Shown: positions 1 through 15,539 of the stretch, piece by piece
Layout of the letters: every line of letters starts with the position of its first letter
Position numbering within the stretch: the stretch's first letter is position 1
Origin: Raphidiopsis brookii D9
Lineage (GTDB): Bacteria > Cyanobacteriota > Cyanobacteriia > Cyanobacteriales > Nostocaceae
Direction of reading: 5' to 3'
Assembly: GCA_000175855.1 (NCBI GenBank)
Contig: ACYB01000033.1
Span: 1-15,539, forward strand
DNA: 15,539 nt
Made by a program: the position numbers and the translations under genes
The notes under the pieces: generated by a model
What the model was told of the DNA's origin: nothing
Databases searched by the model: none
The model's input: the letters and a program-made list of their open reading frames with translations, nothing else

Positions 1-439
1 CCATAATAAAGTCAAAAGCAAACCGACACATTCTGTCTTTGTGCGCCACAACAATTGTCGATATTTCACCTTTAAGCATTGATAACATAATTGATAAAAA
101 CTTTTTTCTTTTAAAGTTTAATCCGCCTCCAATCTCTGAAACCCAATCATCAACAGCTAACCCACGACTCAAACAAAATGTTTCCATCGCGGATATTTGG
201 TTTCTGAGTTCGGGTTTTTGGCTACTCGAAGAAACTCTACAATAAACAACTACTTTTCGTTTTGAGTCTACAGGTTTTAATCCCTGGGTAATCAGTAAAT
301 CATCTTCAGTATAAAAACGATGCCCCGACAATGTTCTTTTAGCTGGAAGTCTCCCTTGAACATCCCATCTTTGCAAGGTCTTGACTGAAACTCCGATTTT
401 TTTAGCAAATTCATGAGGTTTAAACATAAAGTCACTCAT
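1..439 (-). CDS. tnpA: IS607-family transposase TnpA (serine recombinase with N-terminal MerR-like HTH); only the N-terminal 146 codons are present and the gene continues past the left window edge
   Basis: Not in the supplied ORF track because it is open at the edge. My reverse-strand translation from the ATG at 439-437 reads MSDFMFKPHEFAKKIGVSVKTLQRWDVQGRLPAKRTLSGHRFYTEDDLLITQGLKPVDSKRKVVVYCRVSSSSQKPELRNQISAMETFCLSRGLAVDDWVSEIGGGLNFKRKKFLSIMLSMLKGEISTIVVAHKDRMCRFAFDFIM. It has an HTH (GVSVKTLQRW) followed by the serine-recombinase nucleophile motif VYCRVSSSSQ. That combination is the IS607 TnpA architecture. Confidence 0.85.
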   Translation of the reverse strand, partial: MSDFMFKPHEFAKKIGVSVKTLQRWDVQGRLPAKRTLSGHRFYTEDDLLITQGLKPVDSKRKVVVYCRVSSSSQKPELRNQISAMETFCLSRGLAVDDWVSEIGGGLNFKRKKFLSIMLSMLKGEISTIVVAHKDRMCRFAFDFIM

Positions 440-440
440 A

Positions 441-471
441 GGTTTGTCTATCAGTGTACGGGTTTATCTAT
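441..471. repeat. Two 11-bp subterminal direct repeats with a 20-bp period between the tnpA start and the IS end; candidate TnpA binding sites
   Basis: GGTTTGTCTAT at 441-451 and GGTTTATCTAT at 461-471 match at 10 of 11 positions, two helical turns apart. IS607-family ends are known to carry multiple subterminal TnpA-binding repeats. Confidence 0.5.
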
Positions 472-623
472 TAAAATGTCAACTTAGGACAAGCTCCGAT
501 TACAGCACTACGGGATTTTTGGGGGTTGAACCTGGATGTGACCAAATATCTCAATCAAGCGATCGCTCTTCTTACTATCTCCTATTACAGCGCCACGGAA
601 TTTTTTTCGAGGGGGGTTGACTA

Positions 624-652
624 TTGACCGTCAGACGTGATACTCTGATAAT
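624..652 (+). promoter_or_regulatory. Sigma70-type promoter consensus inside long unit U2
   Basis: TTGACC (624-629), 17-nt spacer, GATAAT (647-652). Confidence 0.4.
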
Positions 653-922
653 GGAAATCTGTGCAATTTTTTTACAAACGCTCATACTCCATTATACTCA
701 ACCATCATAATACCACATTTCCACCACTTCGACCACAAAAAAACTTATCTCAACCCCTTATAAACATAATTTTTCCTTATTACTCACCTTTACATATATG
801 GATTAAGACAATTGTATTTCTAATACTACTAATATTTTGCCCACCTTCACCAAAAAGCGATCGCTCTTCTTACTATCTCCTAATTACAGCGCCACGGAAT
901 TTTTTTCGAGGGGGGTTGACTA

Positions 923-951
923 TTGACCGTTGGACGTGGTACCCTGATAAT
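923..951 (+). promoter_or_regulatory. Sigma70-type promoter consensus inside long unit U3
   Basis: TTGACC (923-928), 17-nt spacer, GATAAT (946-951). Confidence 0.4.
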
Positions 952-1480
952 GGGAATCTTTGCAATTTTTTTTACAAATGCTCACACTCCATTGTACTCA
1001 ACCATCATAATACCACATTTCCACCACTTCGACCACAAAAAAACTTATCTCAACCCTCTATAACCATAATTTTTCCTTATTACCTACCCTTATATACATG
1101 GATTGAGGCAATTGTATTTCTAACACTACTAATATTTTCCCCCTTCACCAAAGAGCGATCGCTATTTACCTTACCTCCCATTACAGCACCACGGGATTTT
1201 TGGGGGTTGAATACTGGATGTGACCATAGTATCCCAACAAGGCGATCGTTCTTCTTACTATCTTCCATTACAGCACCGCAGGATTTTTGGAGGTCGAATA
1301 CTGAATGTGACTATAGTATCCCAACAAGGCGATCGCTATTCACCTTATCTCCTAATTACAGCACCGTAGGATTTTTGGGGGTTGAATACTGGATGTGACC
1401 ATAGTATCCCAACAAGGCGATTGCTATTTACCTTATCTCCTATTACAGCGGCACCGAATTTTTTCCGAGGGGGTTGACTA

Positions 1481-1509
1481 TTGACTGTTGGACGTGGTAC
1501 CGTGATAAT
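1481..1509 (+). promoter_or_regulatory. Sigma70-type promoter consensus inside long unit U7
   Basis: TTGACT (1481-1486), 17-nt spacer, GATAAT (1504-1509). Confidence 0.4.
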
Positions 1510-1777
1510 GGGAATCTTTGCATTTTTTTTTACAAACGCTCACACTCCATTATACTCAACCCTCATAATACCACATTTCCACCACTTCGACCACAAAAAA
1601 ACTTATCTCAACCCCTTATAAACATAATTTTTCCTTATTACTCACCTTTACATATATGGATTGAGACAATTGTATTTCTAACATTACTAATATTTTCCCC
1701 CTTCACCAAAAAGCGATCGCCATTTACCTTATCTCCTATTACAGCGCCACCGAATTTTCTTCCAGGGGGGTTGACTA

Positions 1778-1806
1778 TTGACCGTTGGACGTGGTACCCT
1801 GATAAT
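1778..1806 (+). promoter_or_regulatory. Sigma70-type promoter consensus inside long unit U8
   Basis: TTGACC (1778-1783), 17-nt spacer, GATAAT (1801-1806). Confidence 0.4.
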
Positions 1807-2073
1807 GAGAATCTGTGCATTTTTTTTACAAATGGTCACACTCCATTATACTCAACCCTCATAATACCACACTTTCGACCACAAAAAAACTTATCTCAAC
1901 TCTCTATAAACATAATTTTTCCTTATTACTCACCCTTATACACATGTATTGAGGGATTAAGGCAATTGTATTTCTAACATTACTAATATTTTCCCCCTTC
2001 ACCAAAGAGCGATCGCTATTTACCTTACCTCCCATTACAGCACCACGGAATTTTCTTCCAGGGGGGTTGACTA

Positions 2074-2102
2074 TTGACCGTTGGACGTGGTACCGTGATA
2101 AT
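2074..2102 (+). promoter_or_regulatory. Sigma70-type promoter consensus inside long unit U9
   Basis: TTGACC (2074-2079), 17-nt spacer, GATAAT (2097-2102). Confidence 0.4.
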
Positions 2103-2583
2103 GGGAATTTGTGCAATTTTTTTACGAATGCTCACACTCCATTATACTCAACCCTCATAATACCACATTTCTACCACTTCGACCACAAAAAAACTTATCT
2201 CAACCCTCTATAACCATAATTTTTCCTTATTACTCACCTTTGTATATATGGATTGAGGCAATTGTATTTCTAACACTACTAATATTTTCCCCCTTCACCA
2301 AAGAGCGATCGCTATTCACCTTATCTCCTAATTACAGCACCGCAGGATTTTTGGAGATTGAATACTGAATGTGACCATAGTATCCCAACAAGGCGATCGC
2401 TATTCACCTTATCTCCTAATTACAGCACCACGGGATTTTTGGGGGTTGAATACTGGATGTGACCATGATATCCCAGCAAAGCGATCGCCATTCACCTTAT
2501 CTCCTATTACAGCGCCACGGAATTTTTTTCGAGGGGGGGTTGACTATTGACTGTTGGATATATATGAATTAAGAGGATCTATA

Positions 2584-3069
2584 TTAACTGTTAATCAGGT
2601 TCTGTAAAAAAGCTATATAGCTTGTTAACTCATTAAAAACCAGAGGTACTGCCCTTTCATAGATCTTGGCTAAATACTCTAAACGAGACCAATCATAGTT
2701 AAAATCGTAGTAATATCTTTTAAAGTGACGGAATCGTCGTAACTCATCCAATAGTTCGTAGGAGTGGTGGGACAAAAGAGCTTGACGAATTCCAGGAATC
2801 TCAATCCGCATTTTGCGCAATAGTTCTTTGTGCCATTGGGAATCATCCAGGTGGTTTTCAAATTCCCTAGAAATGCGTAGAAATATAGTTTCTAAACAAG
2901 TATAAGTATTACAAAAGATGTCCGCCAGCAAAACTGCATCTCGAATATCTCGTTTGCTCTCATCGGTAAAAAAAGGTTTATAGGTATTATATAACTTTTC
3001 CAAATCTTTCGATACTTTTTGACCTTCTTCAATTTCCGCAATTAAAACTGGCAAACTATCATGATGCAT
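2584..3069 (-). CDS. HEPN-superfamily (HepT-like) putative RNase toxin, partner of the upstream nucleotidyltransferase
   Basis: 161-aa ORF with all-alpha-looking composition. Its start overlaps the stop of the NTase gene by 11 nt. The C-terminal motif LDELRRFRHFKRYYYDF resembles the R..H..Y signature of HepT-like/DUF86-type HEPN toxins. The spacing here is R-x3-H rather than the textbook R-x4-6-H, so the family call rests partly on gene context. Confidence 0.5.
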   Translation of the reverse strand: MHHDSLPVLIAEIEEGQKVSKDLEKLYNTYKPFFTDESKRDIRDAVLLADIFCNTYTCLETIFLRISREFENHLDDSQWHKELLRKMRIEIPGIRQALLSHHSYELLDELRRFRHFKRYYYDFNYDWSRLEYLAKIYERAVPLVFNELTSYIAFLQNLINS

Positions 3070-3421
3070 AAATAACCTTACCCTTAAGCAATAGGATTTG
3101 TTGAAAAGCAGGATGAATATCTTCCCAACGAATCAAATCCAAAGAAAAGTTAGTCATAGCTTCTGCATCTGCAAACAAGCGAAGAAAAATTAAAGGTTCA
3201 ATACCCAACACTGCTAAATCAATATCAGAAACAGAGGAAAAATGTTCTGGCGCTAAAACTGACCCCCATTGAATAATTTGTTTAGGCGCGTATTCCTGAA
3301 TAATCATGGCAACAATTCTTTCCGAGTCCAGTTTAGCTTTTTGCCAAAGAAGGTGACGCTCATTTTGACGTGACCTTTGTTTATCTAGATAGAATTGCTT
3401 TGCTTTAGTATAATCAAACAT
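3059..3421 (-). CDS. Minimal nucleotidyltransferase (MntA-like antitoxin of a type VII NTase/HEPN pair)
   Basis: 120 aa. It carries the classic pol-beta-fold NTase signature G-S-x11-D-x-D (WGSVLAPEHFSSVSDIDLAV). It lies immediately upstream of, and overlaps, the HEPN-like ORF. Confidence 0.75.
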   Translation of the reverse strand: MFDYTKAKQFYLDKQRSRQNERHLLWQKAKLDSERIVAMIIQEYAPKQIIQWGSVLAPEHFSSVSDIDLAVLGIEPLIFLRLFADAEAMTNFSLDLIRWEDIHPAFQQILLLKGKVIYAS

Positions 3422-6998: not shown

Positions 6999-8429
6999 TC
7001 AGACGGTATCAACGGTCTCAAATTCAAATTTGATTTCTTTCCACAGTTCGCAAGCAGTAGCCAATTCAGGTGACCACTTAGCAGCTTCCCGGATGATGTC
7101 GTTACCTTCACGAGCTAAGTTACGACCTTCGTTACGCGCTTGAACACACGCTTCCAAGGCTACACGGTTAGCTGTGGCTCCAGGCGCATTACCCCAGGGG
7201 TGACCTAAAGTACCACCACCAAATTGTAGTACGGAATCATCTCCGAAGATCTCTACTAGAGCTGGCATGTGCCATACGTGAATACCACCGGAAGCTACCG
7301 CCATTACCCCAGGCATGGAAGCCCAGTCTTGGGTAAAGTAAATACCACGAGATTTGTCTTGCTCTACGTAATTCTCACGTAATAAATCTACGAAACCCAT
7401 GGTGATCGCGCGATCGCCTTCTAATTTACCTACTACGGTACCGGTGTGAATATGGTCTCCACCAGACATACGCAGGGCTTTAGCTAGTACCCGGAAGTGA
7501 ATCCCATGGTTCTTTTGACGGTCAATTACGGCGTGCATAGCGCGGTGAATGTGTAATAACAATCCATTATCACGACACCAGCGAGCTAGGGTTGTGTTAG
7601 CTGTGAATCCTGCAGTCAAGTAATCGTGCATGATGATAGGCATCTCTAGTTCTTTGGCGAACTCGGCACGCTTAAGCATTTCTTCACAGGTGGGAGCTGT
7701 AACGTTCAGGTAGTGACCTTTGATTTCACCTGTTTCCGCTTGAGACTTCTTAATAGCTTCCGCTACAAATAAGAAGCGATCGCGCCATCTTTGGAAAGGA
7801 GCGGAGTTGATATTTTCATCATCTTTGGTGAAATCTAGACCACCGCGCAAGCACTCATATACTGCACGTCCGTAGTTTTTAGCGGAGAGACCCAATTTGG
7901 GTTTAATGGTACAACCCAATAAAGGACGACCATATTTATTCAACTTGTCGCGCTCAACCTGAATACCGTGGGGAGGTCCTTGGAACGTCTTGAGGTAAGC
8001 TACGGGAATACGTAAATCTTCTAAACGCAGGGCGCGTAGGGCTTTAAATCCAAACACGTTACCTACAATAGAGGTAAACATGTTGGTTACGGAACCTTCT
8101 TCAAATAGATCCAGGGGGTAAGCTACATAAGCGATATATTGATTATCTTCACCTGCTACTGGTTCGATGTCATAACAACGTCCTTTGTAACGATCTAAGT
8201 CAGTCAATAGATCTGTCCAAACTGTTGTCCAAGTACCTGTAGAAGATTCAGCTGCTACTGCTGCACCTGCTTCTTCGGGAGGAACTCCAGGTTGGGGTGT
8301 CATCCGGAATGCGGCCAAAAGGTCTGTATCCTTTGGTGTGTAATCGGGCGTGTAATATGTTAGTCTGTAATCTTTAACCCCAGCTTGATACCCAGATTTG
8401 CTCTGAGTCTTCGTTTGCGCGTAAGACAT
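6999..8429 (-). CDS. rbcL: RuBisCO large subunit, form IB
   Basis: I trimmed the ORF-track ORF 6999..8465 to the ATG at 8429. This gives [34 protein letters not shown] (476 aa). Active-site regions [17 protein letters not shown] and [14 protein letters not shown] are present. Confidence 0.98.
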
Positions 8430-9854: not shown

Positions 9855-12305
9855 ATGAAAAATCCAGTGCAAACCCAAAATAATAACTTGCATATTTTAG
9901 TAATTGGTGCAGGGGTAAGTGGCTTAACAACATCCATTTGTCTAAGAGAAGCGGGTTTTAATGTTACTATTATCGCTGATCGCTTTACTCCTGATTTAAC
10001 CTCTGTTGTAGCAGGTGCATTGTGGGAATGGCCACCAGCAGTTTGTGGTCGTCATGGGACTCCCAGATCCCTAGAACGTTCTAAGGATTGGTGCATGACT
10101 GCTTATGATAAATTTAAAGAAATACACGCAAAGTTTGGTTCAGAAAAAACTGGAGTTTATTTAAGAGATGTGTATTTTTATTTCAAAGATATTTTGGAAA
10201 ATCGACCTAATGATTTTCGGAAAATGAATGAGTTAAAGGACAAGGTAGATGGATTTGAAAGAGGTTTACACATAGTTCAAGAAAACATTGACTTGAACTT
10301 CCAAGGAGGCATAAAAGATGCTTTTAAACACATGGCTCCAATGGCAAATACTGATGTATACATGAAGTGGTTGTTTGAATATGTCCAGAATATTGGATGT
10401 GAAATTATCCAAGAAAAAATCACGGTTAATATAGTTGAAAATGAACAGGAAGTGCTTCACCGTTTCAATGCCAATGCAATTGTTAACTGTGCTGGACTAG
10501 GTTCAATAGTAACTACGGGTGATACTTCCATGTATCCCCTGAGAGGCGCACTAGTCAGAGTAAAAAATGTAGGTGGAGTTATCAAAGACGCTCATTGTAT
10601 TTCTCATGAGGAAACATCGTCTTCTGAACAAGACATTATTTTTATTGTTCCTAGAGGTGATGATTTAGTGGTATTGGGAGGATTAGCACAGCAAGATCAA
10701 TGGGATACAAATCTATCTCTAGAAATTCCCATTATTAAACAAATGTATGATGGTTGTTTACAGTTTCTACCAGAATTAAGACCACTTCCCATAGATAAAA
10801 ATGAACCAGTCAGGACTGGTTTAAGACCATTCACTGAGGAAAATGTTTGTGTAGAAAGAGTTCCCAACACACGAATATTTTATAATTATGGACACGGTGG
10901 AGCTGGCGTAACTCTTTCCTGGGGATGCTCACAAGAAATTGTGGATTTAATACAACAAATGATCCATGAACAAAGCGTGGAATTAAGTACTTTAAGTAAA
11001 AAGATAGATGGTAACAAACAAACCATATTTGTCTTGCATGATATGCTGCCCAGTAAAACTGATTTTAAACTGCTTCGCTCAGATAATAGAAATCTAGTTT
11101 TACTTTGTAGTAGAAGAGGACTGAGTAAAATCGTACCCTCTCAATATCAACATTTAGATTTAATACAGATTGTCGAACCTTATAATTTACAAAATCTGAT
11201 CCAAAGCTATCAAAAGATTCAGATAGATAACGGAATTGTTAATAATTGCTGCATTGTCACTAATGACGAATATTCCGTACTATTAGCAGCACAGCTGCGT
11301 GAAACTCTAAATCTACCCGGCGATCGCCCCACAATGATCCGCCAGTTTACTGATAAAAATTACCTAAAATCTGCCCTGAAAAACTCCTTAATTCGAGTAC
11401 CAAAACATCTAATTTTTGACCCCAATCAATACCGTGAACAGGGGATTTCCTACTTACAATTCGTTGTGCAAGAATTGGGAAATAATATTTTTGTGAAGCC
11501 AGTTATTGGTGCAGGTAGTGAAAAAACTAGGAGAATTCACGCTCTTGATCAATTAGCAAACTGGTGTGATAGCAACCTAGATACTGATGAAGAATTTGAA
11601 TTTAATGAATTTATCAGAGGTCAACTATATAATACAAGTGTGGTCATGAAAAATGGTGAACCTTGTTATTTTGCAGCTTGTAAACACTATCGACCTAATG
11701 ATGATTTCATTTATGGTCATCCAATTGGCAATATTGTTGTCAGAGAAGAAGATCCAGAATTTGAAAAACTGCAACAATTTTCCAGTGATACATTGCAAAG
11801 TTTAAAATATGGTTATCCCCAAAATGGTATCCTCAACATTGATTTTTTCCTAGAAGCAGGTAGCAAAGAACCAGTTCTTATGGAAGTCGCTGCAAGGACT
11901 CCTGGTGGACTTGTCTCAAAAATGTTTTATACATATCAAGGAGTACGTCTCAATGAATTACATCTGCAATTACAAATGGGAGACTCTCCTGAAATCATTC
12001 TCAAAGACACAAATGAATGGAAGTACAGCGCTTACTCAATTCATCCCAAGCAAGATGGTACAGTTACAGCAATTAGAAAACCAATTCTAGAAAGTGATGT
12101 GGAAGTTTATTGGCAGATTTATCTAGGAGAAAAACTACAAGCATCACAAAGCATGAGAGATGTAGCTATGGCCATGCTTTTGAGTAGTCATGACTTTTCT
12201 ACTTTGGAAAGGGATTATCAAATAGCTAATTCCATGAGTTTATATCAGACAAACAAAAATAGTGTAGAAGGATTTAAACCTGTCCTTGTTTCTATGGGAT
12301 CATAA
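9855..12305 (+). CDS. Two-domain fusion protein: N-terminal D-amino-acid-oxidase-family FAD oxidase fused to a complete C-terminal ATP-grasp ligase
   Basis: 816 aa. The DAAO part (about aa 1-375, nt 9855-10980) has HILVIGAGVSGLTTSICL (FAD dinucleotide fold), ADRFTPDLTSVVAGALWEW, VNCAGLGS, PLRGALVRV, IVPRG..VVLGG, GLRPF and YNYGHGGAGVTLSWGC, collinear with eukaryote-type DAAO. The ATP-grasp part (about aa 385-816, nt 11010-12302) has a pre-ATP-grasp region (NDEYSVLLAAQLRETLNLPG), FVKPVIGAGSEKT, and LNIDFFLE...PVLMEVAARTPGG. The last is the metal/ATP-binding E-x-x-x-R-x-x-G motif seen in PurK/PurT-like and L-amino-acid-ligase families. Confidence 0.8.
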   Translation: MKNPVQTQNNNLHILVIGAGVSGLTTSICLREAGFNVTIIADRFTPDLTSVVAGALWEWPPAVCGRHGTPRSLERSKDWCMTAYDKFKEIHAKFGSEKTGVYLRDVYFYFKDILENRPNDFRKMNELKDKVDGFERGLHIVQENIDLNFQGGIKDAFKHMAPMANTDVYMKWLFEYVQNIGCEIIQEKITVNIVENEQEVLHRFNANAIVNCAGLGSIVTTGDTSMYPLRGALVRVKNVGGVIKDAHCISHEETSSSEQDIIFIVPRGDDLVVLGGLAQQDQWDTNLSLEIPIIKQMYDGCLQFLPELRPLPIDKNEPVRTGLRPFTEENVCVERVPNTRIFYNYGHGGAGVTLSWGCSQEIVDLIQQMIHEQSVELSTLSKKIDGNKQTIFVLHDMLPSKTDFKLLRSDNRNLVLLCSRRGLSKIVPSQYQHLDLIQIVEPYNLQNLIQSYQKIQIDNGIVNNCCIVTNDEYSVLLAAQLRETLNLPGDRPTMIRQFTDKNYLKSALKNSLIRVPKHLIFDPNQYREQGISYLQFVVQELGNNIFVKPVIGAGSEKTRRIHALDQLANWCDSNLDTDEEFEFNEFIRGQLYNTSVVMKNGEPCYFAACKHYRPNDDFIYGHPIGNIVVREEDPEFEKLQQFSSDTLQSLKYGYPQNGILNIDFFLEAGSKEPVLMEVAARTPGGLVSKMFYTYQGVRLNELHLQLQMGDSPEIILKDTNEWKYSAYSIHPKQDGTVTAIRKPILESDVEVYWQIYLGEKLQASQSMRDVAMAMLLSSHDFSTLERDYQIANSMSLYQTNKNSVEGFKPVLVSMGS

Positions 12306-13669: not shown

Positions 13670-14854
13670 ATGAGTAGAATAGAAACCCGCACCGAACCAA
13701 TGGTGCTAAATATGGGTCCTCATCACCCCTCAATGCACGGGGTGTTGAGATTAATAGTCACCCTAGATGGAGAAGATGTGGTTGACTGTGAACCAGTCAT
13801 TGGTTACCTACACCGAGGAATGGAAAAAATCGCTGAGAACCGCTCAACTATCATGTATGTTCCCTACGTTAGTCGTTGGGACTATGCTGCGGGGATGTTC
13901 AATGAAGCGGTAACAGTCAATGCACCGGAAAAACTAGCAGGTATCACAGTACCTAAACGTGCTAGTTATATTCGTGTCATTATGCTAGAGTTAAATCGTA
14001 TTGCTAACCATCTATTATGGTTTGGTCCTTTTCTTGCGGATGTGGGTGCCCAAACTCCCTTCTTTTATCAATTCCGGGAAAGGGAAATGATTTATGATTT
14101 GTGGGAAGCAGCTACTGGTTATCGGATGGTAAATAATAACTATTTCCGGGTTGGTGGGGTAGCAGTGGATTTACCTTATGGTTGGGTAGATAAATGTGAA
14201 GAATTTTGCGACTACTTTTTGCCCAAAGTGGATGAATATGAACGGTTAGTCACTAATAATCCTATTTTCCGTCGTCGGATTGAGGGTATTGGTACTATTA
14301 CCCGGGAAGAAGCGATTAACTGGAGTCTTTCTGGTCCAATGTTGCGAGGTTCAGGAGTGAAGTGGGACTTACGCAAAGTTGACCATTATGAGTGTTATGA
14401 TGATTTCGATTGGGATGTGCAGTGGGAAACAGCAGGTGACTGTCTTGCTCGATATATGGTAAGAATGCGAGAAATGAGGGAATCTGTGAAAATCATTAAA
14501 CAAGCTCTCAAAGGTTTACCAGGTGGTCCCTATGAAAACCTAGAAGCAAAACGGATGATGGCCGGGCCAAAGTCGGAATGGGATGGTTTTGATTATCAAT
14601 ATGTAGCTAAAAAAGTTGCTCCCACCTTTAAAATTCCCAGCGGTGAAATTTATTCTCGTGTGGAAAGTGGTAAGGGTGAGTTGGGTATTTATTTAGTGGG
14701 TGATAATAATGTCTTCCCCTGGCGTTGGAAAATTCGTCCTGCTGACTTCAATAATCTGCAAATTCTGCCCGGTTTATTACGGGGTGTTAAGGTAGCAGAT
14801 ATTGTGGTGATTCTCGGTAGTATTGACGTGATTATGGGTTCTGTTGATAGATAG
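13670..14854 (+). CDS. ndhH: NAD(P)H-quinone oxidoreductase (NDH-1) subunit H
   Basis: 394 aa. [58 protein letters not shown] is the canonical cyanobacterial NdhH (NuoD homologue). Confidence 0.97.
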
Positions 14855-14924
14855 CTTTGAAAAAAATCAAACAATGTGCTGCTATCAGGTGATAAATCAT
14901 TGTGAGAGTGCTTGATCCCCCCAA

Positions 14925-14957
14925 CCCCCTTAAAAAGGGGGCTAGCTATTTTTATTT
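14925..14957 (+). terminator. Stem-loop plus T-rich tail downstream of ndhH (possible terminator; also resembles small dispersed C5/G5 hairpin repeats)
   Basis: CCCCCTT (14925-14931), AAA loop, AAGGGGG (14935-14941), followed by CTAGCTATTTTTATTT. It lies 70 nt after the ndhH stop. Confidence 0.45.
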
Positions 14958-15110
14958 GGTTTATAAAGAGTTAGAACTGCTTATGTTGTAATGGATAGAG
15001 TAAATGCTAGGGAGAAAGAAAAAACCATGGTACAGAACCTATTAAATTTAACAATTCTTGTCTCTCTTAACCTTTTGTTACATAGTTATAAATTTCTCAG
15101 CCGACTTACT

Positions 15111-15539
15111 GAATAAGAAAAAATTATGGTTATAGAAGGTTGAGATAAGTTTTTTTGTGGTCGAAGTGGTAGAAATGTGGTATTATGAGGGTTGAGTATA
15201 ATGGAGTGTGAGCATTTGTAAAAAAAGTGGACAGATTTCCATTATCAGGGTATCACATCCGACGGTCAATAGTCAACCCCCCTCCAAAAAAATTCCGTGG
15301 CGCTGTAATAGGAGATAGTAAGAAGAGCGATCGCTCTTTCCCGAAGGGGAGAAAATATTAGTAATGTTAGAAATACAATTGCCTTAATCCCTCAATCCAC
15401 ATATATGAAGATGAGTAATAAGAAAAAATTATGGTTATAGAAGGTTGAGATAAGTTTTTTTGTGGTCGAAGTGGTAGAAATGTGGTATTATGAGGGTTGA
15501 TTATAATGGAGTTTGAGCATTTGTAAAAAAAAGTGGAAA
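15111..15539. repeat. Second array of the same repeat family (long-unit type) in inverted orientation, truncated by the right window edge
   Basis: 15111-15334 is the reverse complement of the first ~225 bp of a long unit, with HIP1 at 15327-15334 and the core at about 15272-15309. 15335-15539 is the reverse complement of the tail and middle of a further long unit. It aligns by eye to U2-U9 with scattered substitutions. Confidence 0.9.
15241..15269 (-). promoter_or_regulatory. Sigma70-type promoter consensus in the inverted long unit
   Basis: On the minus strand, TTGACC (15269-15264), 17-nt spacer, GATAAT (15246-15241). Confidence 0.4.

Follow-up and report, generated by a model that had tools for sequence, protein, structure and literature searches.

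The locus and its genes

We analyzed the 15,539-bp stretch of Raphidiopsis brookii D9 DNA deposited as contig ACYB01000033.1 (assembly GCA_000175855.1), referred to here as the window, with emphasis on a composite tandem repeat array near its left end. Pfam annotation of the open reading frames (ORFs) identifies the window as chromosomal. Its genes are arranged in the order IS607-family tnpA (minus strand), array, hepT and an mntA-like nucleotidyltransferase gene (minus strand), rpmI, rplT and a DUF29 gene, followed further along by genes for a solute-binding protein and a tetratricopeptide repeat protein, rbcS-rbcX-rbcL (minus strand), panB, genes for a DAO/ATP-grasp protein and an EamA transporter, and ndhH. 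An earlier note on this DNA had placed a composite tandem array between the end of the IS607-family insertion sequence (IS) and the toxin-antitoxin (TA) pair, which we confirmed. The array (array 1), built of short (S) and long (L) units, and the features on either side of it are as follows.

1-496, minus strand: left end of an IS607-family element with the 5' part of tnpA at 2-439 (Pfam Resolvase and MerR)
497-558, plus strand: S', a headless first S-type unit with its core at 499-529 and the tail variant ..AAATATCTCAATCAA
559-856 and 857-1154, plus strand: two L units, both with the head variant TCTTCTTACTATCTCC
1155-1241, 1242-1328 and 1329-1416, plus strand: three S units, placed by Tandem Repeats Finder (TRF), anchor and HIP1 positions
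1417-1712, 1713-2008 and 2009-2304, plus strand: three L units, placed by anchor search and unit comparison
2305-2392 and 2393-2480, plus strand: two S units, placed by TRF and anchor search
2481-2558, plus strand: L', a terminal partial L unit cut after about 78 bp, inside a promoter-like spacer (between ..TTGACTGTTGGA and TATATATGAATT)
2584-3069, minus strand: hepT (Pfam HepT-like_2), tail-to-tail with the array
3059-3421, minus strand: mntA-like nucleotidyltransferase gene (Pfam Polbeta), forming a TA pair with hepT

Architecture of the array

A read-through of positions 1-3200, TRF and an anchor search all delimit a tract of pure tandem repeat from about 497 to 2558, the right edge of which lies 25 bp before the hepT stop codon. 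A pattern search found the anchor ATTACAGC 12 times between 499 and 2506. The core consensus, ATTACAGC..ATTTT..GGGGKTGA, is likewise present in 12 copies, all in register and head-to-tail. TRF reported periods of 300, 87, 296, and 88 with 84-90% matches, and the spacing from one HIP1 octamer to the next in array 1 is 296-298 bp for L units and 87-88 bp for S units. The perfect octamer GCGATCGC occurs nine times (559, 857, 1155, 1329, 1713, 2009, 2305, 2393, and 2481), and two further copies carry one mismatch (1242 and 1417); the chance expectation is 0.01. In the rest of the window there are six perfect copies.

The anchor search, TRF, and the HIP1 scan thus reproduced the 12 cores, the unit lengths, and the HIP1 counts and coordinates of the earlier note. 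Its count of six HIP1 sites outside the array also held, one of which (15327), however, sits in a second array that the note had overlooked. The long and short units do not alternate as the note had it but are arranged in blocks, in the order S' L L S S S L L L S S L'. The divergence of about 5-15% that it had estimated by eye suits the L units, with a measured pairwise identity of 85-92% in array 1, and understates that of the S units, with 79-94%. The plus strand of 494-2558 is asymmetric in composition, with 14.4% G and 25.1% C, against approximately 20% and 19%, respectively, over the remaining window sequence.

Both unit types begin with a shared module of about 60 nt, composed of the HIP1 octamer, a pyrimidine-rich head (TATTYACCTTATCTCC or TCTTCTTACTATCTCC) and the core. 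The module continues into a tail of about 30 nt in S units (87-88 bp in total) or about 235 nt in L units (296-299 bp), and the two tail types have no detectable similarity to each other. We also considered the S tail as a deletion derivative of the L unit, as the earlier note had proposed. However, no significant similarity links the 31-nt S-specific tail to the L body at any position (478 of 1000 shuffles scored equally well), which leaves this origin unsupported. A diverged L-unit tail in the right flank was discarded on similar grounds: with 14 matches in 16 positions, TATATATGAATTAAG does not outperform shuffled sequence. Direct reading of the unit further revealed a 7-bp periodic motif, TTGACTA-TTGACCG-TTGGACG.

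The units are mosaics. Head variants cross the unit types, the S unit at 1242 carrying the head of the L units at 559 and 857, and the L unit at 2009 combines its own tail with the head and left core of the S unit at 1155. In a set of 61 distinct units, variants of the head occur in free combination with those of the 3' core. Internally deleted units of 134, 173, 250, and 340 bp are numerous across strains, where units with mutated cores (e.g., ATTAAAGT) or deleted cores are common as well.

Variation between strains

Orthologous loci were retrieved from other assemblies by exact-protein look-ups with the mntA-like protein, NdhH, and L20; they are cited by the handles L001 to L070. Among the sources, NPIK and NPIL are Cylindrospermopsis raciborskii CYRF and CYLP, and LUBZ is strain ITEP-A1, all from Brazil (PMC5658482, PMC4859165). 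The flanks of the locus are 98.1-99.6% identical to the window, and hepT genes of the same length were called in related strains. The array was found in more than 10 independent assemblies and adjoins hepT in all strains examined, yet no two arrays are alike. Its direct, head-to-tail units lie at a single locus, and their number at the orthologous locus ranges from 1 to more than 30:

L067: solo unit
L001: one full L unit
L065: two full L units
L002: L S L L
window (D9): 12 cores
ITEP-A1: at least 14 units in L004 and a further 18 in L047, a contig made up of array only; at least 5 kb in all

Even between near-identical strains, the best match of a unit is mostly only 90-97%. The right junction (..TTGGA followed by TATATATGAATT), in contrast, occupies the same unit position in every strain that keeps the hepT 3' flank. 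The solo unit of L067 is truncated and lacks the -10 element, and it is flanked by the same tail variant, AAATATCTCAATCAA, as the first S unit of the window.

The outer flank differs from strain to strain. It consists of the IS607-family element in the window, an IS630-family element in L005, an N6/N4 methyltransferase gene in L002 and L046, a 5'-truncated surE gene in L001, and a duplicated, terminator-bearing segment in L065. The latter (2100-2340) comprises two tandem segments of about 120 bp that border the array, each ending in a terminator-like hairpin (CCCCCCCAACCCCCCTTAAAAAGGGGGGCTTTT). In L001 (11231-11290), surE starts at approximately codon 8 right at the array edge (..AIAL*EDDGVSALGI), which reflects either a genuine breakpoint of rearrangement or faulty scaffolding in the reference-guided CYRF and CYLP assemblies. 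A solitary L-body fragment of about 115 bp without head or core is located upstream of the methyltransferase gene in L002 (13099-13213); standing between array-derived sequences, this gene looks as if it had been inserted into the tract. In L003 (11030-11300), a gap of 100 N inside the array is followed by high-GC sequence of non-cyanobacterial appearance, probably a mis-scaffold or contamination in NPIL01000001.

IS elements have entered the tract repeatedly. Comparison with four independent IS607 copies sets the left end of the IS607-family element at about position 496. The insertion point is inside an S unit, just upstream of the core, and this unit has lost its head. The array probably continues past the left edge of the window; an IS607 transposase search aimed beyond that edge returned IS-sized contigs only. 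The IS630-family element is intact in the metagenome contig L054 (1139-2300; DDE_3 and HTH ORFs, end AGTAAGTCGGCTG...), repeatedly abuts or interrupts L units, and in L005 (13101-13248) interrupts the L unit at the outer end of array 1. A relationship between the repeat units and the ends of either element was considered and rejected, as sequence comparison of the units with the IS607 and IS630 copies found no similarity.

The array can also destroy its neighbor. The hepT gene is 3'-truncated in L005 (10660-10700) and L070 (939-1319), leaving 110 and 126 aa, respectively; the antitoxin-like gene is intact in both. In L005, an L unit is fused directly into hepT; the truncation in L070 is probably due to the array junction as well.

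A second, inverted array

Core pattern matching, reading of the sequence from 14800 to 15539, and an inverted-repeat search uncovered array 2 at the right end of the window, which is absent from the earlier note:

14968-15112, plus strand: decayed end of an IS630-family element, abutting array 2; 87% identity to the intact IS end in L054 and L005
15112-15539 and beyond, minus strand: L units of array 2, running off the window end; core at 15273-15309, HIP1 at 15327-15334

Arrays 1 and 2 are opposite in orientation and form long inverted repeats on either side of the 12.5-kb hepT..rbcLXS..ndhH segment. Each points toward the 3' end of the neighboring gene. An inversion of the segment between them was not detected, its orientation being the same in all strains that have both flanks. 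In L050, the closest strain, array 2 is complete and consists of two L units. The L units at 559 and 857 are the array-1 units most similar to array 2, with 90.8% identity to that of L050. The terminator segment of L065 also borders array 2 in L050, which suggests that the left end of array 1, along with its flank, was the source from which array 2 was copied. On the opposite side of array 2, L050 carries another copy of the IS630 end, 78 bp in length (12121-12198).

The interval from ndhH to the LPG-synthase gene, which corresponds to the window beyond 14855, is a variable island (L049, 11318-13442; L051, 6454-9396). Some strains carry GmrSD_N there, alone or accompanied by HEPN_MAE_28990; the lineage of the window has array 2 and remnants of IS elements. 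In L050, array 2 occupies the place of the GmrSD/HEPN defense genes found elsewhere between ndhH and the LPG-synthase gene. Within the segment between the arrays, positions 9855-12305 encode an 816-aa protein in which an FAD-dependent oxidoreductase (DAO) is fused to an ATP-grasp domain; in L001, this gene is broken up into two or three ORFs.

Distribution beyond the species

A scan of 185,579 species genomes, carried out like the other genome-collection scans with exact patterns instead of a DNA similarity search, yielded 35 single matches, 0 of them in Nostocales and none array-like by BLAST. The JGI metagenome scan returned two contigs, both of the same locus type, and the IMG/VR viral scans nothing real. 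Neither plasmids nor phages gave a match in blastn ("distant" setting). When the 245-aa array ORF was compared with 5.8 billion proteins, the only matches were nine spurious ORFs from the same arrays. In these scans, the repeat family was seen only in Cylindrospermopsis (Raphidiopsis) raciborskii material, and literature searches found no earlier description of the tract in C. raciborskii. With no Rfam match at E<=1 either, the verdict of the earlier note that the unit has no recognizable family stands, and judged by sequence comparison the repeat belongs to no described family. The note had also reasoned that absence of the unit from the rest of the genome, together with a lack of transcription, would argue for a neutral local amplification. 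The genome, JGI, and IMG/VR scans come close to this by finding no copy outside the two arrays and their sister-strain equivalents, and further copies in the same genome are likely to be absent.

A probably near-neutral hypervariable tract

We consider the tract to be, with moderate confidence, a species-restricted, non-coding and near-neutral variable number tandem repeat (VNTR) or "macrosatellite" that is reshuffled by out-of-register recombination between its modules. Direct 60-nt modules repeated every 87 or 297 bp would offer substrates for out-of-register homologous recombination or replication slippage. Such events would delete, duplicate, and reshuffle units, which would give rise to the mixed order of S and L units, the mosaics, and the strain-specific arrays. 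Head variants common to S and L units are the basis on which we call the units mosaic. Together with the many internally deleted units, they suggest recombination inside the shared module, accompanied by deletions between short homologies, rather than crossover at HIP1; the phasing by HIP1 may simply mean that the amplified unit happened to hold one such site.

Low constraint is suggested by the IS607 and IS630 insertions in units, the hepT-truncating junctions, and the frequency of deleted units and mutated cores. The chief consequence of a near-neutral tract would be local genome plasticity, which shows in the polymorphic copy number, the variation of the outer flank, and the presence of an inverted second copy at a distance of 12.5 kb. 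Unequal recombination or slippage would likewise account for rapid copy-number change, the accumulation of IS elements, and flanking deletions. The polymorphism, the mosaicism, and the IS insertions were directly observed, and none of the signatures of coding sequence, structured RNA, or mobile elements that we looked for was present in the tract, whereas both the mechanism and the neutrality are what we infer from these findings.

Several observations weigh against this interpretation. The L unit is conserved at a fairly even level over its length (89-99% in 20-nt windows), and a near-consensus sigma70-like site keeps its position and its 17-nt spacer in most L units. The tract persists in all clades sampled, with an invariant solo unit and right junction, and bacteria usually purge neutral direct repeats. 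Most of the arrays were taken from short-read drafts or reference-guided scaffolds, in which the order of tandem repeats can be wrong, and N gaps lie inside the arrays of L003 and L046. In addition, the genome collection may mask the window, as the species' own arrays were not returned.

Tests for a function as RNA, protein-binding DNA, or protein

A multi-copy RNA gene or promoter array resembling NsiR1, in which each L unit fires from its own TTGACC-N17-GATAAT site, appears unlikely, though it is the main rival. The site scores 10/12 and lies at the same position in all five full L units of the window:

624-652, 923-951, 1481-1509, 1778-1806 and 2074-2102, plus strand: sigma70-like sites, one per full L unit

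Among 25 distinct L units, 15 have the site intact and seven carry a weakened version (GACAAT), and the -35 region with its upstream G-run is among the most highly conserved blocks of the L unit. The facing of both arrays toward the 3' end of an adjacent gene, the low G and high C content of the plus strand, and the Nostocales precedent of NsiR1, present in tandem copies each with its own promoter (PMC4030482), also speak for transcription. The products would be C-rich, G-poor, and unstructured, and might serve as trans-acting RNAs, sponges, or read-through antisense transcripts to the convergent hepT-mntA pair and, for array 2, toward ndhH.

An equally good site is expected in 16.5% of random units of the same composition, however, and it has been lost in three of the 25 L units. 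In S units, the promoter spacer is 14 nt, and L067 gets by with a single truncated unit devoid of the -10 element. IS insertions and deletions are tolerated. The array contains no terminator and no Rfam match at E<=1, and the RNA-folding z-scores (-0.65 and -0.30 for L units, -0.75 to +1.18 for S units) gave no signal on either strand. A hairpin between the head and GGGGGT was rejected because the covariation apparent in three units disappeared across 61 distinct units. Folding, covariation, and terminator tests therefore lend no support to the RNA-gene array that the earlier note had listed among its options, and every NsiR1 feature testable here is lacking. The more specific proposition that the L units are autonomous transcription units, forming a species-specific promoter battery dosed by copy number and producing G-poor, unstructured RNAs that act as trans sponges or regulators or as antisense to hepT-mntA and ndhH, strikes us as improbable.

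It is less probable still that the tract is a DNA-level binding array, in which the ATTACAGC and GGGGKTGA blocks, or the triplet of TTGACnn heptads, are bound repeatedly by a regulator, by a nucleoid protein, or by a recombinase. The core blocks are indeed the parts common to both unit types, and the heptads recur with a 7-bp period. On the other hand, no gene for a binding protein is consistently adjacent, the outer flank being different in every strain, and the copy number extends from 1 to more than 30. Cores are mutated in many units, as in ATTAAAGT, or deleted, and the genome and metagenome scans found no copy elsewhere.

Recombination mediated by HIP1, with the palindrome as the crossover point that created and phased the units, was another option raised by the earlier note, and we regard it as highly doubtful. 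Exactly one HIP1 is present per unit, at the start of the shared module, and the leftmost unit in both L001 and L002 begins at AAGCGATCGC, beside two different flanks. The S/L mosaics, however, switch inside the core, and in the one deletion variant whose junction was read (a unit of L047), the break is at a short AT-rich microhomology and not near HIP1. Other left boundaries are elsewhere in the unit (L005, L065, and L067), and the right boundary falls in the promoter-like spacer. Cyanobacterial genomes are rich in HIP1, so that a site may be present in any 300-bp segment that undergoes amplification.

A decayed repeat-protein gene, a CRISPR-like or type III antitoxin (ToxI-like) repeat, a cluster of miniature inverted-repeat transposable elements (MITEs), or an assembly artefact can be given next to no credence: ORFs of 245 and 167 aa do traverse the repeats, 297 and 87 are multiples of 3, and the array adjoins a TA pair, but 4.7% of random units would have a stop-free frame and not all array units share one, the inter-core segments fall into two repeated classes with no cas or toxN-like gene among the window ORFs, the units have no terminal inverted repeats, and the array recurs in independent assemblies. 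Coding sequence in particular was rejected, as the substitutions show no codon periodicity (p=0.44), L units vary from 290 to 307 bp across strains and are not multiples of 3, no frame is consistent, and the array ORFs have neither a Pfam match nor real homologues.

Comparison with known repeat systems

The tract shares with bacterial VNTRs and minisatellites its non-coding, head-to-tail units at a fixed locus, a copy number that varies between close strains, a potential use in typing, and change inferred from slippage or unequal recombination. One example is a minisatellite inside a MITE of Porphyromonas gingivalis (PMC4596501). The tract described here differs in its long units (87 and 297 bp) of two classes that share a 60-nt module, in its length of at least 5 kb, and in its occurrence in two inverted copies outside any mobile element.

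The promoter motif of NsiR1 (DIF) is TCCGGA. This motif is absent from both arrays, its only site in the window being at 8303, and the ORF annotation of the window contains no hetF-like gene. NsiR1 resembles the tract as a large, ordered tandem array in Nostocales, and each L unit has a promoter-like site. PMC4030482 describes NsiR1 as a 60-nt RNA with a conserved heterocyst-specific promoter motif that is encoded near hetF and reported from all available heterocystous genomes. Our tract, in contrast, has units of 87 and 297 bp, neither fold signal, TCCGGA, hetF, nor terminator, and was found in one species only. Rfam gave no NsiR1 match at E<=1, the presence of an NsiR1 model in the Rfam library being unconfirmed. 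The absence of TCCGGA, hetF, and terminators agrees with the view of the earlier note that the array is unrelated to NsiR1.

Bacterial interspersed mosaic elements (BIMEs) of enterobacteria consist of palindromic REP units that alternate in orientation and are scattered over hundreds of loci. They, too, are composite intergenic arrays downstream of genes, with a short common module and a few alternative linkers, whereas the units studied here are direct, non-palindromic, and confined to one neighborhood. CRISPR arrays are similar in their conserved direct repeat of about 35-60 nt and their regular spacing. The "spacers" of our tract, however, form two repeated classes, the repeat has no hairpin, and the window ORFs include no cas domain. 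In type III TA systems, tandem repeats of about 34-40 nt lie upstream of, and are co-transcribed with, a ToxN/AbiQ-like toxin gene. The neighbor of the present array is instead HepT with a protein antitoxin, in tail-to-tail arrangement, and no ToxN-like domain is encoded in the window. Features expected of MITEs or IS-derived repeats, namely terminal inverted repeats, similarity to IS607 or IS630, and dispersed copies in the genome and metagenome scans, were not found. The earlier note was accordingly right to set the array apart from CRISPRs, from MITEs, and from heptameric short tandem repeats, the TRF periods being only 87-300.

Implications

If the L units were transcription units, they would constitute a second tandem array of RNA genes in Nostocales, with an evolutionary origin independent of NsiR1, and a transcribed array would be a rare case of an RNA gene array with variable copy number. 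The tract is a case in which a small cyanobacterial genome of about 3.5 Mb retains kilobases of dynamic, satellite-like DNA that gathers IS elements. It explains why draft assemblies break and synteny ends beside the rbcLXS neighborhood. If the tract is near-neutral, as we favor, its interest is chiefly practical: by length and sequence it would serve as a highly discriminating marker of strains in a toxin-producing, bloom-forming cyanobacterium that is invasive worldwide and whose strains are otherwise more than 98% identical at the locus. The value of the tract thus likely lies in its use as a strain marker and in its role as a rearrangement hotspot.

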